Positions 56,389-63,990 are shown, numbered from the stretch's first letter. The stretch is DNA of 64,000 nt from an uncultured delta proteobacterium (GCA_963772225.1 CAVYWD010000010.1:41724-105723); one strand, 5' to 3'. Made by a program: numbers and translations. The notes: a model not told the origin generated them from the letters alone.

Positions 56389-56757
56389 TTACTGGCAAGG
56401 GCAGCAGAAGTAGCTCCAGCCCGCCGGCGTCGGGATCCGAATGCTCTCGCAGGCCCAGGCCGGCGATGGCGAGGCCTCGTAGCACCCGACCGCGTAGCGA
56501 GCGCTCCCGCAGGTGTCGCTGCATGACTTCGAGCCGTCGGACGCCACCTCGCACGTGGTGAAGGCGTCCCAGGCGCCGCAGCCCTGCGCCACTGCTCCCT
56601 CGGCAGCGGCCTGGACGTCGCTCGGCCAGCGGCAGGATGCTCGGAGCGCCGGGTCGGAGACACCGCCGGCCTTGAGGTTCGCCGCGTCGTTTGCCGCCCC
56701 GCCCGAGCAGCTTGGCCCGAGGGCGAGAAGTACGAGAAGCAAGGCCGCGCTCTTCAT
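56389..56757 (-). CDS. Small Cys-rich secreted protein / lipoprotein
   Basis: 122 aa with a signal peptide (MKSAALLLVLLALGPSC) and 11 Cys residues. AGGAG lies 9 nt upstream of the ATG. Confidence 0.65.
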   Translation of the reverse strand: MKSAALLLVLLALGPSCSGGAANDAANLKAGGVSDPALRASCRWPSDVQAAAEGAVAQGCGAWDAFTTCEVASDGSKSCSDTCGSARYAVGCYEASPSPAWACESIRIPTPAGWSYFCCPCQ

Positions 56758-56998
56758 GGTGTGCATCTCCTGGAGCGCCGAGTTGCATCGCTTGCGCCAG
56801 GCCTCCTCTCCCTGCGTGCCTGCGGGCTGGGCGCGCGAATCCACGGAAACCGTCCACCGAGGCCTCAGGAATTTGAGGCTCGCGCCGAGGGCTCTCGGCT
56901 CTGGACTGCGCAGCGCGGCGCTTGGCTGCGCCGGGTCGATCCCTCGAGGCGAGGGCGCGTTGCCGGCGCGCGGTGCAGCTCCTATACTCTCCACCGTC

Positions 56999-57580
56999 AT
57001 GATGTCGTCGAAACACGAGGTAGGCGAGCGCATCGACCTGCACCTCACCTACGAGGACTATTGTGCCCTGCCCGAGGACGGCCGGCGCTACCAGGTCATT
57101 GGGGGGGACTTGGACGTGACGCCCGCTCCGTCGTACTCCCATCAGCGCGTTTCGCGGAATCTCGGGGCCGTCCTTCACGAGCACGTTGGCCGAAATCGTC
57201 TGGGCATCGTCCTCTTCGCCCCCATCGACGTGATCCTCGCCGACGACACCATTGTGCAACCCGACCTCGTATTCATTGCGCGCGACCACCTCTCGCGGGT
57301 CAATGAGCGCGGAATCGAAGGGCCCCCAGACCTGGTGGTCGAGATCCTCTCGCCCAGGACCCGGCGAACAAATCGCGTCATCAAGATGCGGGCCTACGCT
57401 CGTTTCGGCGTGCCGCAATGCTGGCTCGTCGACCCCGAGGCGCAGAGCCTCGAGATGTTCTCGCTGTCCAGCTCGGGGTACGTGCTCACCCGAGTTGCGG
57501 GCGGCGGCGAGACTGTGCGGTCGGAGCTCTTCCCCGAGCTGAACCTCGCGCTCGGAGAGATCTTTGCGCCGGACGCGTAG
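56999..57580 (+). CDS. Uma2-family (DUF820) PD-(D/E)xK endonuclease
   Basis: 193 aa with YQVIGG...SYSHQRVSRNL...QPDLVFI...PDLVVEILSP...D...K..Y...GV..CWLVDP, which fits the typical Uma2 pattern. Confidence 0.8.
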   Translation: MMSSKHEVGERIDLHLTYEDYCALPEDGRRYQVIGGDLDVTPAPSYSHQRVSRNLGAVLHEHVGRNRLGIVLFAPIDVILADDTIVQPDLVFIARDHLSRVNERGIEGPPDLVVEILSPRTRRTNRVIKMRAYARFGVPQCWLVDPEAQSLEMFSLSSSGYVLTRVAGGGETVRSELFPELNLALGEIFAPDA

Positions 57581-57849
57581 GACGGCACGGCCGGGCGTGG
57601 CCAGGGCGCGAAGGCTCCAGAGCGCAGACTCCCGATGGCGCGGGCCTGGCGCCTGAAGCGCACAAGGCCGTAGGAAGCCAACGCTCTCGATGTGGATTGC
57701 TCCAGGTTCCCGGTGCGCGTCACCTTCGCCCAGGTCGTCGCGCGCGGCGCGCGCCATGGCGACCGCGCCCATGGCGACCGCTGGAATTCCAATCCCGCGG
57801 CCCAGGGCGCTAGACTCCACCGCGAGCTCGCCTCCCTGCCGCTCTGAAG

Positions 57850-58872
57850 GTGGAGTCAAAGTTGACTGCCGGTGAAGCCCCGCGATTGGACGAATGGGTC
57901 GAAACCGTCGCGCCGGGCGCTGTCCGCGCCGTCCTCACCGACGACGTTGTCGGCGCTGTCTCGGCGCTCGCGGTCTGCGCCGGCCGCCGGGGCGTCACCG
58001 CGGTCCACGTCGCGCCGTCGCCGCCGAGCATCGAGGAGGCGATCGCCCAGGCCATTCGAGCGCTCGCGCAGGCCGCGCAAGAGCTCTGGCCCGACTGGTA
58101 CGGCGAGGCCGGGTCGCCCGAGGGGCCTTCGCGAGAGCGCGTCGCCGCGAGGCATCCCCGGGTGCTGGCGCGCTGGCTCACCGCCGCCGGCGAGCGGGCC
58201 CGCCGCGGGCTCGCGCCTCTCGTCCACGACCTGCCGCTCGAGGTGCAGGCGGGTCAGCTCGCTCTCGCGCTCGACCCGTCCGCGCTGGTGGTGGCGCTGG
58301 GGCTTCAGAGCGCAAATCCCGGCGACGCCAAGCTCGCCTCCTTCGCCCGGGGCGCCGAGTGGCTGGCGAGCAAGACCGCGGCTCGGGTCGTGGCCGTCGT
58401 GCCCTGGCAGCTCGAGGGAGCTCTCTGGGTCGACCCCATCGCCTACGGGGCGCTTCGGCTCATGGGCCGGGAGCCGAGCGCCGCCGCGCCAGCGCACGTC
58501 TTCCCGGTGATGGGCCGGCCGCACCCGGGGAGCGAGGCAGAGCAGGTGCTGGCCCGCGCGCTCGCCCGAGACGAGGAGCTTTGCCCCCTCTTCGAGTTCA
58601 ACCAGCGCCTATCGACGGGGCGGAGGGCCCACCCCACAGTCGACCTCGTCTGGCGAGAAGGGCGCCTGGTCGTCGAGCTCGACGGATGGGAGACGCACGG
58701 CAATCGATGGGCCTTTGCGAGCGATCGGCACCGCGACTACGAGCTCGCCCTGAGCGGATACGTCGTGCTGCGCTTGACCAACGACGAGGTCTTGCGAGAT
58801 CCCGCGCTGACGATCGACAAGATTCGAGACCTGGTGCGGGCTCGCCGCACGCTGGGAAAGGAAGCGCGATGA
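57850..58872 (+). CDS. Protein with an unknown N-terminal domain and a C-terminal DUF559 (Vsr-like) endonuclease domain
   Basis: 340 aa. The C-terminus (HPTVDLVWREGRLVVELDGWETHG...DRHRDYELALSGYVVLRLTNDEV) fits the DUF559 D...E.DG..H...D..R...L...G..V.R pattern. The start is GTG at 57850 or TTG at 57862. Confidence 0.7.
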   Translation: MESKLTAGEAPRLDEWVETVAPGAVRAVLTDDVVGAVSALAVCAGRRGVTAVHVAPSPPSIEEAIAQAIRALAQAAQELWPDWYGEAGSPEGPSRERVAARHPRVLARWLTAAGERARRGLAPLVHDLPLEVQAGQLALALDPSALVVALGLQSANPGDAKLASFARGAEWLASKTAARVVAVVPWQLEGALWVDPIAYGALRLMGREPSAAAPAHVFPVMGRPHPGSEAEQVLARALARDEELCPLFEFNQRLSTGRRAHPTVDLVWREGRLVVELDGWETHGNRWAFASDRHRDYELALSGYVVLRLTNDEVLRDPALTIDKIRDLVRARRTLGKEAR

Positions 58873-59480
58873 ACGAAGAGCTCCCGGAGAGCGCCAAGGT
58901 GTTCCTGCTCGAGCTCGTGTTCTCGGGCCGCGAGGTGATGCAGAGCAAGACCGGCCTCGAGGTGCCGATGCGCAGGCACCTCCAACAGCTTGGGCTGATA
59001 TCGCTGGAGAAGCGCGGCCCGGCTACCTATGTCGCCGCGACCGACGCGGCCTGGAAATGGGTCGAGGAGAACTTGGACCTCGCGCTCGCGCGCACCCAGC
59101 CGCGCCGCGCGCTCGAGGCCGTGCTGAAGCGGCTGCGCGAGTTCTTGGCGGCGAACGACCTGCCGCTCTCCGGGTTCGTGCGCCCCGCCGTGCCGGAGGC
59201 GTCGCCCGCGCCCGCCGAGCCGCTCGAGGCGCAGATCCGCCGCGCGTACCTGGCGCGCTCGGGCGGCGCGCTCCATGCCCGCGTGCGGCTCGCCGACCTT
59301 CGGGCGGACCTGCCCGCCGTCGACCGCGCCGCGCTCGACGAGGAGATCTTGACCTTGCAGCGGCAAGAGCGCGCCGCGCTCTTCCCACTGGACAACCCGC
59401 GGGAGGTGGGCCCCGACGACGTGCGGGCCGCCATCAATCTCTCCGGGGTCCCGCAGCACGTTCTCTACCTGAGGGGATGA
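58869..59480 (+). CDS. Hypothetical 203-aa protein (family unrecognised; possibly helical or wHTH-like)
   Basis: Its ATG overlaps the upstream TGA (ATGA at 58869-58872), and its own stop overlaps the next ATG (59477-59480). Third-position GC is high. Confidence 0.65.
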   Translation: MNEELPESAKVFLLELVFSGREVMQSKTGLEVPMRRHLQQLGLISLEKRGPATYVAATDAAWKWVEENLDLALARTQPRRALEAVLKRLREFLAANDLPLSGFVRPAVPEASPAPAEPLEAQIRRAYLARSGGALHARVRLADLRADLPAVDRAALDEEILTLQRQERAALFPLDNPREVGPDDVRAAINLSGVPQHVLYLRG

Positions 59481-62400
59481 CCATGGAGCTCACCGCGCTT
59501 CGCCTGGCGGACTTCGAGTGGACGACGCACATCGACGGCGTCTGGAGCGAGCCGCCGCACGACGTGCCGGCGCTGCACCAGAAGGTCCGCGACGAGCTCG
59601 CCTTTCAAATCGAAAGGCTGGCGCAGCGGCCCGGCGCGGCGTCGCCGCTGGGGGTCGTCCTGACCGGAGAGGCGGGCTCCGGGAAGACGCATTTGTTGTC
59701 GGCCCTTCGAAAGATCGCCTTCGGGCGCGGCGCGAGCTTCGCCCTCATCGACATGACCGACGTGAAGGACTTCTGGGCCACGGCGCAGCTCGGCTTCTTG
59801 AGCGCGCTGCAGCGCCCGGGCGCCTCGGGGCGAAGGCAGCTGAGCGAGATCCTGCAGCACATCATCGAGACCTGCGGGGGCCCCGGCAGCCGCGGGCTCG
59901 ACGTCGAGAAGCTCGCCGCGCTGCGCCCGCCGCGCCTCATCAACGTCATCGACGAGCTCATCGCCGGGCTCGGCAAGCGCTACCCGCTCGAGACGCACCA
60001 GTATCGGGACGTCATCCGCGCCCTGGCGCTCATCAACTGCGACGCCTTCGAAATTGCCAACATCGGCTACGGCTGGCTGCAAGGCATGGGGCTCGACGAG
60101 GACCACCAGCTCGTCCACGACCTGCGCAACTACCAGATGCAGACCTCGCAGCTTTTGAAGGCCCTGAGCTGGCTCAACAGCTTGCGGGCCCCCATGATCA
60201 TCGCGCTGGACCAGCTCGACGCCATCGTCGCCGAGCAGAACCTGGCGAGCGACCCGCTCTCGCCGGACCCCGCCGCCGCCGCGCGGCAGAACGCCGCGCG
60301 GGCCATCATCGAGCGCATCGCCAACGGCCTCATGGACCTCCAGGGCGCCGCCTGCCGCTCGCTGGTCGTCGTCTCCTGCCTGGAGGCGACCTGGTCGGTG
60401 CTGTCGCAGAAGGCGCTCGCCTCCGCGCCGGCGCGGTTCCTGCCGCCCATCGAGCTCGTCAAGCCGGGCGCCGACGCCTTCGCGCACCGGATGATCGCCA
60501 GCCGGCTCGCCGAGTCGTACCGCAAGCACCAGGTGACCCCGCCCCACGAGACCTGGCCTTTCGCGCCCAGCGCTTTCCAGGGGCTGACGCTCACGCCGCG
60601 CGAGGTCCTGAAGCGCTGTCACCAACACGTGCGCGCCTGCGTGGGGGCGGGGCGGATCGTCGAGCTGCAGTCGCTGGGCGCGAGCGCGGCGGCGCCGGTC
60701 GGAGCGGGCCCTTCGGACGACTTGGCGAAGCTGGACGAGCGCTACGCGGCGCTCCAGCGCGAGGCGAAGGTCCAAGGCTTGAAGTCCGAGCCCGCCGAGG
60801 CGCAGCTCGACCGCCTTCTGGAGGAGGCCTGCGTCTGCCTCACCCTGGAAGAGCCGCTCCCCGAGGGCAAGGACGCGCTCGTGGACCGGGACTTCGAGGG
60901 CGCCGGGCGGTTCGACCCGCTGCACGCGCGCATCCGCCTCGTCCACCACGACCAGGGCGACCGCGAGCAGCACTACTCCTTCCGCTTCCTGGAGCACGCC
61001 AACGCCGTCGCCTTCCAGGCCCGCCTCAACGCCGCCGTCACCGCGGCGGGCATCGACCGGCAGCTCGACTTTCGGAAGCTCGTCATCCTGCGCTTCGGCC
61101 CGCTCCCGGGCGGCAAGAAGACGCAGGACCTCCTGGCTCAGTTCGCGTCGCTCGGCGGCGTCTTCCAGGCGCCGAGCAATCAAGACCTGGGCGCGATGAG
61201 CGCCCTCGCCGCTCTGCGGGCCGAGAAGAGCGCCTCCGCGCTCGAGCCGTGGCTGCGCGCCCGGCGGCCGGCGAGCCAAATCTCCCTCTTCAAAGAGGCG
61301 CGGCAGTTCCTGTTCGGGGCCTCGCCGGGCGCGAGCCCCGCTGCGCCCACCCCTCTCGACGGAGCGCCGTCGAAGTTGCGAGAGGTCAGCGCTCCCGGCG
61401 TGAGCGCGAAACCGGCGCCGGCGCCGCACCCGTCGCGGCCTCTGCAGCCAGAGCTCGACCTCTCACCGAGCCGCAGGGCTTCACCCGCAGAGGGCCCGCC
61501 TTCGCCTCGCCCGGACGCTGCCGGCCAGCTGCCCATCGGGAACCGGATCATCGCGGGCAGCGCCGGCGCCGAAATCATCTCGGTCCCGGTCGAGCAGCTC
61601 AGCAAGCACGCCGTCGTCCTCGCCGGCGCGGGCTCGGGCAAGACCATGCTCGTGCGGCGCATGGTGGAGGAGGCCGCGCTGCAGAAGATTCCTTCCATCG
61701 TGCTCGACCCCGCGGGCGACCTCGCGCGCCTGGGCGACCCGTGGCCCGAGCCGCCGCCGGAGCTCGACGAGGCCGACCGCGAGAAGGCCCAGCGCTACCT
61801 CGCGCAGACCGAGGTCGTGGTCTTCACCCCGGGGCGCGCGGCGGGCAACCCTCTGCGCTTCGACCCACTGCCCGACCTCTCGTCCCTGGAGGGCGACGAG
61901 TACACCATCGCGCGGGACCTGGCGCGCGGCGCGCTGGAGCCTCTGGCGCTGGGGCGCACCGGCGCCGCGAAGAAGGGCCGCCTGGGCGTCTTGACCACCG
62001 CGCTCGACTACCAGGCGCAGCACGGGCCTCCAGGGCTCGACGCCTTCATCGCGCTGCTCGGCGACCTGCCCGAGGAGGCCGCCGGCGGATTCGACAAGGC
62101 CCAGAAGCACGCGCGGGAGATGGCGGACGCGCTCCGCGAACAGCAGCACATCAACCCGCTCTTGCGCAGGGAGGGCGAGCCGCTCGACCCCGCCGTCCTC
62201 TTCGGCGACGCCAAGGGCGGCAGCGGCCGGACGCGAATCTCGGTGGTGAGCTTCGTCGGCCTCCCCAGCCCCGAGGAGCAGCAGGCGTTCGTGAGCCAGC
62301 TCGCCAGGACGCTGTTCGGCTGGATCAAGCTGAACCCCAAGGTCCAGGGCCGCGCCCTGCGCGGGCTCCTGGTGGTCGACGAGGCGAAGGACTTCGCGCC

Positions 62401-62791
62401 GTCGGCGGGCGCCAGCGCCAGCGGCGCGGGCCTGATCCGGCTGGCGAACCAAGCGCGCAAGTACGGGCTGGGGCTCATCTTCGCCACGCAGGCGCCCAAG
62501 AGCATCGACCACAACATCATCGCCAACTGCGCGACGCAGCTCTACGGGCGGGCCGCCTCGCCGGCGGCGCAGGACGTGATCCGCGACCAGATCCAGGCTC
62601 GCGGCGGGTCGGGCGACGACATCGCCAAGCTCACCGCCGGGACCTTCTACCTGCACACCGAGGGGATGGCGGCGCCCGCCCGGGTGAAGACCCGCTTCTC
62701 GCTCTCGCATCACCCCAAGAACCCGCTGAGCCCGGACGAGGTGCTCGAGCGGGCCGTGCGGTCGCGCCGCGCGCTTCACCCGGGCGAGTGA
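59477..62791 (+). CDS. 1104-aa double P-loop NTPase: N-terminal ORC/AAA_16-like module plus C-terminal HerA/FtsK-like (DUF87-type) module
   Basis: Module 1 has Walker A (LTGEAGSGKTHLL) and a Walker B-like motif (MIIALDQLD). A Pro/Ala-rich linker follows. Module 2 has Walker A (LAGAGSGKTMLV) and Walker B (LLVVDEAKDF). Module 2 also has GLGLIFATQAPKSIDHNIIANCATQLYGR, which is typical of HerA/DUF87 ATPases. Confidence 0.8.
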   Translation: MTMELTALRLADFEWTTHIDGVWSEPPHDVPALHQKVRDELAFQIERLAQRPGAASPLGVVLTGEAGSGKTHLLSALRKIAFGRGASFALIDMTDVKDFWATAQLGFLSALQRPGASGRRQLSEILQHIIETCGGPGSRGLDVEKLAALRPPRLINVIDELIAGLGKRYPLETHQYRDVIRALALINCDAFEIANIGYGWLQGMGLDEDHQLVHDLRNYQMQTSQLLKALSWLNSLRAPMIIALDQLDAIVAEQNLASDPLSPDPAAAARQNAARAIIERIANGLMDLQGAACRSLVVVSCLEATWSVLSQKALASAPARFLPPIELVKPGADAFAHRMIASRLAESYRKHQVTPPHETWPFAPSAFQGLTLTPREVLKRCHQHVRACVGAGRIVELQSLGASAAAPVGAGPSDDLAKLDERYAALQREAKVQGLKSEPAEAQLDRLLEEACVCLTLEEPLPEGKDALVDRDFEGAGRFDPLHARIRLVHHDQGDREQHYSFRFLEHANAVAFQARLNAAVTAAGIDRQLDFRKLVILRFGPLPGGKKTQDLLAQFASLGGVFQAPSNQDLGAMSALAALRAEKSASALEPWLRARRPASQISLFKEARQFLFGASPGASPAAPTPLDGAPSKLREVSAPGVSAKPAPAPHPSRPLQPELDLSPSRRASPAEGPPSPRPDAAGQLPIGNRIIAGSAGAEIISVPVEQLSKHAVVLAGAGSGKTMLVRRMVEEAALQKIPSIVLDPAGDLARLGDPWPEPPPELDEADREKAQRYLAQTEVVVFTPGRAAGNPLRFDPLPDLSSLEGDEYTIARDLARGALEPLALGRTGAAKKGRLGVLTTALDYQAQHGPPGLDAFIALLGDLPEEAAGGFDKAQKHAREMADALREQQHINPLLRREGEPLDPAVLFGDAKGGSGRTRISVVSFVGLPSPEEQQAFVSQLARTLFGWIKLNPKVQGRALRGLLVVDEAKDFAPSAGASASGAGLIRLANQARKYGLGLIFATQAPKSIDHNIIANCATQLYGRAASPAAQDVIRDQIQARGGSGDDIAKLTAGTFYLHTEGMAAPARVKTRFSLSHHPKNPLSPDEVLERAVRSRRALHPGE

Positions 62792-62802: not shown

Positions 62803-63990
62803 ATGGGCTCGATTTCGAAATCCCGAGTCTTCGACGCGGTGATCGTCGGAGCGGGCCCCGCGGGCTCGCGCCTGGGGGAGCTCCTCGCGCGCCGCGGCAG
62901 GAGCGTGGCCATCCTCGAGCGGCAGCGCCACCCGCGAAACAAGGTCTGCGGCGGCGGCCTGTCGCGAAAGTCCATCGATCTGCTCGGGGTCGACCTGAGC
63001 TCCGTGACGCGCCAGGAGATTCGAGGCGCGATTCTCACGTATGGCAATCGCGAGGGAATCATCAAGGACCCGGAATTCTCGGCTCATACGGTGGTGCGCA
63101 GCGAATTCGATGCTTTCCTGGCCGCGCGCGCCCGCGCCGCCGGCGCGGAGGTCTTCGAAGAGACCGCCTTCCAGGACGCGCAGGAGGCCTCCGATTTCGT
63201 GGAGGTCCGGACCAGCCGAGGGGAGCTTCGGGGAAGGCTCCTCTTCGGCGCCGACGGCGCGTCGAGCCGGGTCCGAAGCCAGCTCTTCGGGAAGGACCGG
63301 GTCCGGATGGCGCCGGCGCTGGAGGCAATCGTCCGCGTCGGCGAGGGGGAGATCGCCCGCCTGCAGAATCGGGCGGTGTTCGATTTCGGGGTCATGCCCG
63401 GAGGTTACGGGTCGATCTTTCCGAAGCGAGACCATTTGAATGTCGGGGTCTATTCGCCGAGCGCGCCGAGGAGCGGCGCCTTCCTGCGTCAGCGCCTCGA
63501 GGACTTCATGGGCCGCTACGAGATTCTGCGCGAGCCGTCTCAGGTCCGGTTCGAGGGCTCTCCCATTCCGCTGCAGAACCGGAGCGGCGAATTCCAGCGC
63601 GGCCGGACGTGGCTCCTGGGGGATGCTGCGGGGCTCGCGGAGGCGCTGTTCGGCGAGGGCATCTACTTTGCGCTCAAGAGCGCGGCGCTCGCGGCCCAGG
63701 CGGTGGAGGAGGATGGGCTCCTCGCGAGCTCTCGACGCTATTCGGCGCTTTTGCGAAGCGAGCTGCTCCCGGAGCTTCGGGCGGCGCGGTGGATGGCGCG
63801 ACTCGTCTATCGCCTGCCGCGCTTCACGTTCACGCACCTGGTGCTCCAGGGGCGCATCAACGGCGATTTTGCGGCGCTCATTGGCGGCACCCTGGGGTAT
63901 CGGCGGTGCCTCGCGCAAACGCTCTGGAGGTTTCCGCGGTGGGCCAGGAAGAGCGAGCGGCCGGAAGGCGCGCGCGCGCCGGCGCTCTAG
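62803..63990 (+). CDS. Geranylgeranyl-reductase-family FAD-dependent oxidoreductase
   Basis: 395 aa with an FAD fold (DAVIVGAGPAGS), CGGG and GDAAGL motifs. It starts 11 nt after the ATPase stop. Confidence 0.8.
   Translation: MGSISKSRVFDAVIVGAGPAGSRLGELLARRGRSVAILERQRHPRNKVCGGGLSRKSIDLLGVDLSSVTRQEIRGAILTYGNREGIIKDPEFSAHTVVRSEFDAFLAARARAAGAEVFEETAFQDAQEASDFVEVRTSRGELRGRLLFGADGASSRVRSQLFGKDRVRMAPALEAIVRVGEGEIARLQNRAVFDFGVMPGGYGSIFPKRDHLNVGVYSPSAPRSGAFLRQRLEDFMGRYEILREPSQVRFEGSPIPLQNRSGEFQRGRTWLLGDAAGLAEALFGEGIYFALKSAALAAQAVEEDGLLASSRRYSALLRSELLPELRAARWMARLVYRLPRFTFTHLVLQGRINGDFAALIGGTLGYRRCLAQTLWRFPRWARKSERPEGARAPAL

Follow-up and report, generated by a model that had tools for sequence, protein, structure and literature searches.

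A three-gene cassette encoding a DUF559 nuclease, a tandem winged-helix protein and an AAA+/HerA fusion ATPase, a probable member of the predicted Orc/CDC6-HerA/FtsK capture class

The trio and the predicted capture class

Mobile, variable gene neighbourhoods that couple HerA/FtsK to a particular Orc/CDC6 AAA+ ATPase have been described as a class of capture systems (Rakesh, Aravind and Krishnan, NAR 2024; PMC10853773). Their core is made up of the Orc/CDC6 ATPase, an inactive restriction endonuclease (REase), an active REase from one of two families, HerA/FtsK and a winged helix-turn-helix (wHTH) domain, present in one or several polypeptides, the inactive REase being an insert that separates the AAA+ core from the C-terminal wHTH; a subset adds a separate, fast-evolving protein that carries 2-4 wHTH domains (PMC10853773). 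The Orc/Cdc6 part was proposed to localise the apparatus on DNA, and HerA/FtsK to intercept invader DNA and pump it to the nuclease. The neighbourhoods show both mobile-element and defence features, and the class is a computational prediction (PMC10853773). A HerA is also part of MADS (Mad1-8; Maestri et al., 2023 preprint, published 2024). This methylation-based system has eight genes, and its model calls for Mad6 (kinase), Mad7 (DndG-like wHTH) and Mad8 (HerA), with Mad7 and Mad8 both needed for defence. Here we analysed a locus of three genes (the trio) at positions 57850-62791 of a 64,000-nucleotide stretch of DNA from an uncultured delta proteobacterium (CAVYWD010000010.1:41724-105723; the whole stretch is referred to as the window), which is predicted to encode a nuclease (gene 1), a winged-helix protein (gene 2) and a large fusion ATPase (gene 3).

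The trio is most likely a further member of this predicted class, with a domain set that has been described before, and not a new category. It shares with the capture systems an Orc/CDC6-type AAA+ module, a HerA/FtsK module, an active REase-fold nuclease and a separate multi-wHTH protein, as well as the fusion of domains in one polypeptide and mobile, variable neighbourhoods. It differs from them in that gene 2 has two wHTH domains with no detectable DndG, SspB or FokI signal. We hold with moderate confidence that the locus is a horizontally mobile anti-invader (phage or plasmid) cassette of the predicted 'Orc/CDC6-HerA/FtsK capture' class. An earlier reading of the window (the sequence-only reading) had put forward a defence or conflict role, which is still the best reading of the evidence, as a prediction. 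It had also failed to recognise the combination as a known system, which is correct in that the trio has no name in PADLOC (2023), NCBIfam (2026) or RefSeq, but the domain set had already been predicted (PMC10853773). The genes are as follows.

57850..58872, + strand: gene 1, nuclease subunit, 340 aa (open reading frame (ORF); upstream of gene 2, same strand, in 65/76 loci with room for it)
58869..59480, + strand: gene 2, predicted tandem winged-helix protein, 203 aa (AlphaFold2 (AF2) model and hidden Markov model (HMM))
59477..62791, + strand: gene 3, fusion ATPase, 1104 aa (ORF and homologue lengths)

ORF calling placed the three genes at 57850-58872, 58869-59480 and 59477-62791, with ATGA start/stop overlaps at 58869-58872 (gene 1/gene 2) and 59477-59480 (gene 2/gene 3), as the sequence-only reading had stated, and the three same-strand genes are tightly coupled as an operon. 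In the public gene calls, gene 1 (P0142) is 336 aa long, which implies an alternative start at TTG 57862, and gene 3 (P0001) is 1102 aa long, which implies a start at the second ATG, 59483. This ATG lies 2 nt past the gene 2 stop codon and has a better spaced Shine-Dalgarno sequence (GAGGGG). The genes abut under either choice of start codons. The GC content of the trio is 0.72, the same as that of the flanks, and no terminator-like site was found after gene 3 in the window.

Domain make-up of the three proteins

Gene 3 consists of four parts, namely an AAA+ module (residues 1-430), a middle domain (440-600), a linker (601-680) and a HerA/FtsK-type ATPase (681-1104). The sequence-only reading had quoted two Walker A/B sets, an ATQAPKSID...NCATQLYGR motif and a Pro/Ala-rich linker, and had called the first P-loop ORC-like and the second HerA-like. 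All of the quoted motifs were located, and the profile matches agree with both assignments (AAA_22 and AAA_16 in the N-terminal part, DUF87/HerA in the C-terminal part).

59477..60766, + strand: Orc/Cdc6/STAND-type AAA+ module of gene 3 (AAA_22 and AAA_16 profile matches)
59666-59689, + strand: first Walker A of gene 3, GEAGSGKT, residues 64-71
60197-60220, + strand: first Walker B of gene 3, IIALDQLD, residues 241-248
60794..61276, + strand: middle domain of gene 3, residues 440-600, 160 aa (alignment of homologues)
61277..61516, + strand: Pro/Ala/Ser-rich linker of gene 3, residues 601-680 (composition)
61517..62788, + strand: C-terminal HerA/FtsK-type ATPase of gene 3 (profile matches)
61625-61645, + strand: second Walker A of gene 3, GAGSGKT, residues 717-723
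62366-62392, + strand: second Walker B of gene 3, LLVVDEAKD, residues 964-972
62483-62551, + strand: ATQAPKSID...NCATQLYGR motif of gene 3, residues 1003-1025

The C-terminal module matched Pfam DUF87, PADLOC mad8 (expectation value (E) 5e-28) and several PADLOC and NCBIfam HerA models, and its PHROG matches were FtsK/HerA-type packaging ATPases. Matches in the PDB were the HerA chains 8xau, 8wiv, 4d2i and 8ziq, and TdpA 8wet; two of the entries among the closest HerA chains are presumably HerAs of defence systems. These matches indicate that the module is a HerA/FtsK ATPase; its Walker A and B are both intact, and its median identity to relatives was 48.6%.

The N-terminal module scored 38.7 bits with AAA_22 and 34.5 bits with AAA_16, both over the Pfam cut-off. 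Among 21 homologues, 20 matched AAA_16, 6 matched AAA_22, 3 matched NACHT and 2 matched BrxC_BrxD, and the Hda, DnaA and IstB models matched the gene 3 module weakly. The profile matches identify it as an AAA+ ATPase of the Orc/Cdc6/STAND type and do not separate the Orc/Cdc6 clade from the STAND clade. Its median identity to relatives was 36.5%. In the first Walker B, D245, Q246 and D248 are invariant across the family, with a Gln at the usual position of the catalytic Glu, and a profile alignment placed D245-Q246-L247-D248 over the 'IDQID' of an Msp1 PDB chain. Wild-type Msp1 has a Glu at the position aligned with Q246, and Glu-to-Gln is the usual hydrolysis-trap mutation. The DQLD form of the Walker B, with Gln for Glu, suggests that the N-terminal module probably binds ATP and hydrolyses it slowly or poorly.

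The middle domain contains six invariant residues (H483, R485, R487, E497, H499 and R503) and showed a median identity to relatives of 43.6%. It had no Pfam match across 21 homologues, no profile match in the PDB and no match to the DUF559 profile. Its position and its pattern of strands and helices make it a candidate for the 'inactive REase + wHTH' insert. The linker that follows is alignable in 10 loci only, and Pro and Ala account for 37% of residues 601-690.

Searches of Pfam, PADLOC, PHROGs and NCBIfam gave nothing significant for gene 2, and the sole listed match, a Maf-like one, was far below threshold. The sequence-only reading had left the protein unassigned, which stands for sequence families, but the AF2 model (pLDDT 87.8) contains two wHTH domains joined by a low-confidence Pro-rich linker, and the Foldseek matches were generic wHTH proteins of the PadR, MarR, ArsR and ScpB types. 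On the strength of this model, gene 2 can be confidently predicted to be a tandem winged-helix protein.

58887-59069, + strand: wHTH-1 of gene 2 (AF2 model)
59223-59471, + strand: wHTH-2 of gene 2 (AF2 model)

The median identity to relatives was 33% for the first wHTH, which is among the most divergent parts of the system, and 40.5% for the second. One homologue of gene 2 (P0137, 242 aa) is without the N-terminal wHTH and carries the C-terminal wHTH domain in two copies, a domain make-up that points to modular reshuffling of the DNA-binding subunit.

Gene 1 divides into two domains, of which the C-terminal one had been described as DUF559/Vsr-like and the N-terminal one as unplaceable; both descriptions agree with our results.

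58537..58830, + strand: DUF559/Vsr-like endonuclease domain of gene 1, residues 230-327 (Pfam PF04480, E 1.9e-10)
57850..58494, + strand: N-terminal alpha/beta domain of gene 1, residues ~1-215 (AF2 model)

Besides PF04480, the C-terminus matched the PDB 'endonuclease-like protein' 3hrl (E 4.5e-6), and 3r3p was listed among the weak matches of the nuclease (E 0.57). D265, E276, D278 and H283 are invariant in 49 homologues, so that the D-ExD-H motif is intact, and the median identity of the domain to relatives was 52.6%. These features mark gene 1 as a predicted endonuclease of the active-type REase fold. The N-terminal domain is well modelled (pLDDT of the gene 1 model 89, pTM 0.79), has no family match and no Walker A, and is the fastest-evolving part of the system (median identity 29%). 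Foldseek returned weak matches only, to P-loop folds of the ABC/RecA type (E ~4e-3, TM 0.21-0.26). With fold matches this weak, the domain was left unassigned. Profile comparisons detected no homology between gene 1 and gene 3, between gene 2 and gene 3, or between DUF559 and the gene 3 middle domain.

Across the three proteins, the recognition-type parts diverge fastest and the enzymatic cores slowest, which fits the capture model.

Spread, gene order and genomic context

A word-indexed search found >200 full-length homologues of gene 3, with lengths of 1050-1137 aa, and an exhaustive search with residues 1-620 gave 396 clusters at E <= 1e-30. The best 150 of these 396 clusters are mostly ~1,050-1,130 aa long, and the AAA+/HerA fusion is thus the standard architecture. 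We then scanned one genome per species (185,579 species genomes) and found 440 relatives of gene 3 (~0.24%) in about ten phyla, including Cyanobacteria, Myxococcota, Planctomycetota, Desulfobacterota, Chloroflexota, Alphaproteobacteria, Verrucomicrobiota, Acidobacteriota and others; a further search added relatives from Actinomycetota. In the species-genome scan the relatives across phyla were all 37-47% identical to the query.

Gene order was counted in 87 related loci, using HMMs built from homologues as well as tblastn. In 85/87 loci gene 2 is the gene directly upstream of gene 3, and contig ends cut the other two loci. Gene 1 is found just upstream on the same strand in 65 of the 76 loci with room for it (~85%). 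The trio is syntenic across phyla. The fixed three-part stoichiometry that the sequence-only reading had inferred from the overlaps was not supported, since the nuclease gene is missing within 8 kb in 11/76 loci (L001, L020, L025, L030, L038, L044, L052, L057, L072, L079 and L081). Genes 2 and 3 form an obligatory two-gene core, and the nuclease is optional. No consistent substitute effector was found in the 11 nuclease-less loci, where the neighbours include SbcCD, EAD1-STAND-WD40, ROCO and P450 genes. The genes abut in 64-80 other loci, with an inferred median spacing of ~5 nt, and this order with near-zero spacing in 87 loci from many phyla is more than chance.

The flanks of the cassette are unrelated between loci, even for a 79%-identical relative, in which the trio has a sugar-transport operon on one side and a histidine kinase on the other. 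The cassette is horizontally mobile across phyla. No conserved fourth gene was found among 143 neighbours from 24 loci, and the commonest Pfam families among these neighbours were ordinary (adh_short (4), LRR, Aldedh). PADLOC matches in the same set were scattered: mad3 three times, mad8 three times, mad2 twice, IetA twice, AriA twice, PDC-S02 once and Cas7g once. Gene by gene, conflict-type neighbours were seen in some loci and none in others, so that the context of the trio is only weakly defence-like. Locus L003 has an integrase at a distance of 2.3 kb from the trio and an HTH_17 gene ~6 kb away, and a TIR gene is near the trio in one locus. Three two-gene loci of Polyangiaceae/Sorangium carry a large EAD1/NB-ARC/WD40 STAND-type gene 9-90 nt past gene 3, and SbcD and SbcC-like genes stand immediately upstream of the pair in two of these loci, but are absent from L089.

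L001 2069-6948 and 11391-15668: regions of a Polyangiaceae/Sorangium two-gene locus
L044 2055-6916 and 11526-15266: regions of a Polyangiaceae/Sorangium two-gene locus
L089 13261-17517: region of a Polyangiaceae/Sorangium two-gene locus

In Tsukamurella tyrosinosolvens (L086, NZ_LR134464.1 175353-191146) the trio shares an island with VapBC and a DEAD-box helicase, located within the ribosomal-protein operon between rpsQ and rplN, and RefSeq names the three proteins 'DUF559 domain-containing', 'hypothetical' and 'DUF87 domain-containing'. A Planctomycetaceae locus encodes a second, stand-alone DUF87/HerA_C protein of 746 aa (L090 4389-6629, - strand) 1.6 kb upstream of the trio.

Phage records gave no match (0 of 50,697), and 6 of 72,556 plasmid records matched, three of them substantially. 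Two of the three substantial ones have chromosome-type content: NZ_LR134464.1 is labelled 'plasmid 22' yet carries core ribosomal-protein genes, and another matching record is 11.85 Mb in size, which is why both look chromosomal. Transposon-like ends of the trio were ruled out, since GC-rich chance repeats were all that the window held in the way of terminal inverted or direct repeats around it. No transposase, recombinase or relaxase was consistently linked to the trio in the neighbours inspected.

Two adjacent genes had been suggested as further parts of the locus. A gene for a FAD-binding (FAD_binding_3) flavoprotein at 62803-63990 begins 11 nt past gene 3 and is probably co-transcribed with the trio in the window. 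Its proposed role as a fourth member was dropped, as tblastn detected it in 0/87 related loci and the downstream genes differ everywhere. Upstream, a complete Uma2-family gene (PF05685, putative restriction endonuclease; 56978-57580, Pfam E 2.7e-35) is separated from gene 1 by 270 nt. The sequence-only reading had taken it as part of a scarred defence islet; tblastn found it in one other locus of the 87, 5 kb away, and the neighbours are mostly housekeeping genes, so that Uma2 was rejected as a member.

Some further features were noted upstream of the trio. A 14-nt unit (CCATGGCGACCGCG / CCATGGCGACCGCT) occurs in tandem, with 15-nt spacing, in the intergenic region at 57754-57782. On the - strand, a 219-aa ORF at 56389-57048, for which Pfam gave no match, has a Cys-rich C-terminus and overlaps the region in which the Uma2 gene frame starts; it is a candidate gene only. 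An internal lipoprotein-like signal sequence (MKSAALLLVLLALGPSC) lies ~107 residues into this ORF, and the real product may be ~110 aa long.

Comparison with other systems and rival explanations

Among described systems, the trio resembles MADS in the pairing of a wHTH protein with HerA, and mad8 was the best PADLOC match, for the HerA module of gene 3 only. No mad model was matched by the N-terminal half of gene 3, nor by genes 1 and 2, which had no PADLOC match at all, and there is no kinase, methyltransferase or specificity subunit among the trio or its immediate neighbours. Since MADS requires Mad6, Mad7 and Mad8 and only a Mad8-like module was matched, membership was ruled out. DndFGH/DptFGH resembles the trio in that a multi-wHTH DNA-binding subunit works with a large protein which has a HerA/FtsK ATPase at its end; in DndFGH/DptFGH this protein also carries the REase-fold nuclease. 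However, the trio contains no DndF-type kinase, and where DndH has REase, inactive SWI2/SNF2 and Dam-like domains, gene 3 has none of these but carries an Orc/Cdc6 AAA+ module. The three proteins had no match to Dnd/Dpt models at E <= 1, and gene 3 showed weak, P-loop-only SspF matches; a place in DndFGH/DptFGH was rejected on account of the missing model matches and the different architecture. BREX was likewise ruled out, with weak BrxC_BrxD matches in 2/21 homologues only, and neither the gene-by-gene inspection of neighbours nor the list of the most recurrent families showed PglZ or PglX.

The compact SIR2-HerA and DUF4297-HerA operons (Gao 'Her') combine a HerA-family ATPase with an effector, as the trio does, and by sequence the structures nearest to gene 3 are HerA chains. 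They differ from the trio, which has a DUF559 effector, a HerA fused to an AAA+ half and an obligatory winged-helix subunit; matches to the anti-phage HerA models are confined to the C-terminal part of the gene 3 ATPase domain (the last ~110-160 residues). No SIR2 or DUF4297 match was found and the HerA of gene 3 is not stand-alone, which rules out membership. NurA-HerA also consists of a HerA-type ATPase encoded with a nuclease, and differs from the trio in the sporadic, mobile distribution of the latter and in its extra AAA+ and wHTH parts. The operon has no NurA domain, and NurA-HerA was excluded on this ground. No literature on DUF559 together with HerA or DUF87 was found.

The capture-type reading is favoured by the operon with its conserved order, the sporadic spread across phyla, the domains and the published prediction (PMC10853773). 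It is supported by island-like contexts in some genomes, with VapBC, an integrase, TIR or EAD1-STAND-WD40, and by the validated MADS, which needs both a wHTH protein (Mad7) and a HerA (Mad8), the latter being the best PADLOC match of gene 3. If the locus works in this way, the fast-evolving winged helices of gene 2, jointly with gene 3's Orc/Cdc6 module, would recognise foreign DNA or localise to it, with the DQLD Orc/Cdc6 module acting as an ATP latch. The HerA/FtsK module would then form a ring and pump double-stranded DNA, and the DUF559 nuclease would dock through its divergent N-terminal alpha/beta domain and cut the captured DNA.

Of the five features of the capture class, four were found, the wHTH feature being supplied by the two wHTH domains in the AF2 model of gene 2. 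Several points weigh against the capture-type reading. The place expected for the inactive REase is occupied by the conserved 160-aa middle domain, which has no profile match. The trio most likely belongs to the class by its domain list, with DUF559 being only a candidate for either of the two REase families of the paper (PMC10853773), and our literature search found no experimental paper on the class. The placement of the gene 3 module in Orc/Cdc6 as against STAND draws on weak profile matches, and no specific relative of gene 2 was detected, DndG, SspB and FokI included. The neighbours are mostly housekeeping genes with no clear defence-island enrichment. Finally, the 11/76 loci without a recognisable nuclease imply that cleavage by gene 1 is not a universal mode of action. 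These loci also allow for a function of the core that is independent of the nuclease: the two-gene core could be self-sufficient, with an ATP-latched loader placing its own HerA motor on foreign DNA, which would be neutralised by pumping or sequestering, and DUF559 an optional addition. We regard this as unlikely.

A rival idea is that the trio is an assembly-activated HerA-effector system of the SIR2-HerA/DUF4297-HerA type, in which a HerA scaffold would switch on the nuclease and indiscriminate DNA cutting would abort infection, with no targeted capture. The HerA chains to which the C-terminal module is nearest among solved structures, the matches to PADLOC and NCBIfam anti-phage HerA models, and the separate, fast-evolving N-terminal domain of gene 1, which is suited to docking, would all agree with such a mechanism. 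However, those models match the last ~110-160 residues only, the Orc/Cdc6-type AAA+ half of gene 3 is foreign to these systems, the obligatory winged-helix partner argues for DNA recognition, and variants without the nuclease exist; we therefore consider this explanation to have a low probability. A module for genome maintenance or DNA repair that acts on the cell's own DNA, as in NurA-HerA end resection or Vsr-like nicking, appears very unlikely. Housekeeping genes are common among the neighbours, the HerA matches include the archaeal HerA of double-strand-break repair, and SbcD and SbcC-like genes stand directly upstream in two Polyangiaceae loci. Yet SbcCD is absent from the related L089, there is no general NurA or Mre11/Rad50 partner, and a cassette found in ~0.24% of species genomes only, patchy across phyla and differing in position even between close relatives, speaks against a repair function; its fast-evolving recognition parts fit conflict better.

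The cassette travels as a unit and enters unrelated sites, as would also be expected of selfish mobile-element machinery, in which the Orc/Cdc6-type ATPase would be a target selector (like TnsC, MuB or IstB), HerA/FtsK a transfer or segregation pump and DUF559 a homing-type endonuclease. Weak matches to IstB, DnaC and TraD/TrwB-type models, the homing endonucleases within the Vsr-like fold (3r3p, E 0.57, being a weak match) and the mixed mobile-element and defence features of such neighbourhoods (PMC10853773) point the same way. Against this stand the absence of a consistently linked transposase, recombinase or relaxase, the lack of terminal inverted or direct repeats flanking the trio in the window, and its rarity on mobile replicons (0/50,697 phage records and 6/72,556 plasmid records, with two of the three substantial ones of chromosome type), and we judge a selfish element to be quite improbable.

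If the capture-type reading is correct and the trio is a defence system, it would exemplify the predicted 'HerA/FtsK capture' strategy in a compact and widespread form, found in ~440 species. Cultivable carriers include Rhodopseudomonas palustris BisB18, Bradyrhizobium, Synechococcus, Kolteria and Tsukamurella; the BisB18 locus is at ~1,289,000-1,292,200 of NC_007925, and WP_068741540.1 is a Tsukamurella representative. The invariant Gln of the first Walker B and the nuclease-less variants offer concrete handles on the system, and should the two-gene core act without the nuclease, this would mean defence without cleavage, by a loader and a translocase in one chain. The trio would provide a three-part model of the way in which a nuclease works together with an Orc/Cdc6-like switch, a subunit that recognises DNA and a ring translocase, a question that bears on the HerA parts of DndFGH and MADS.

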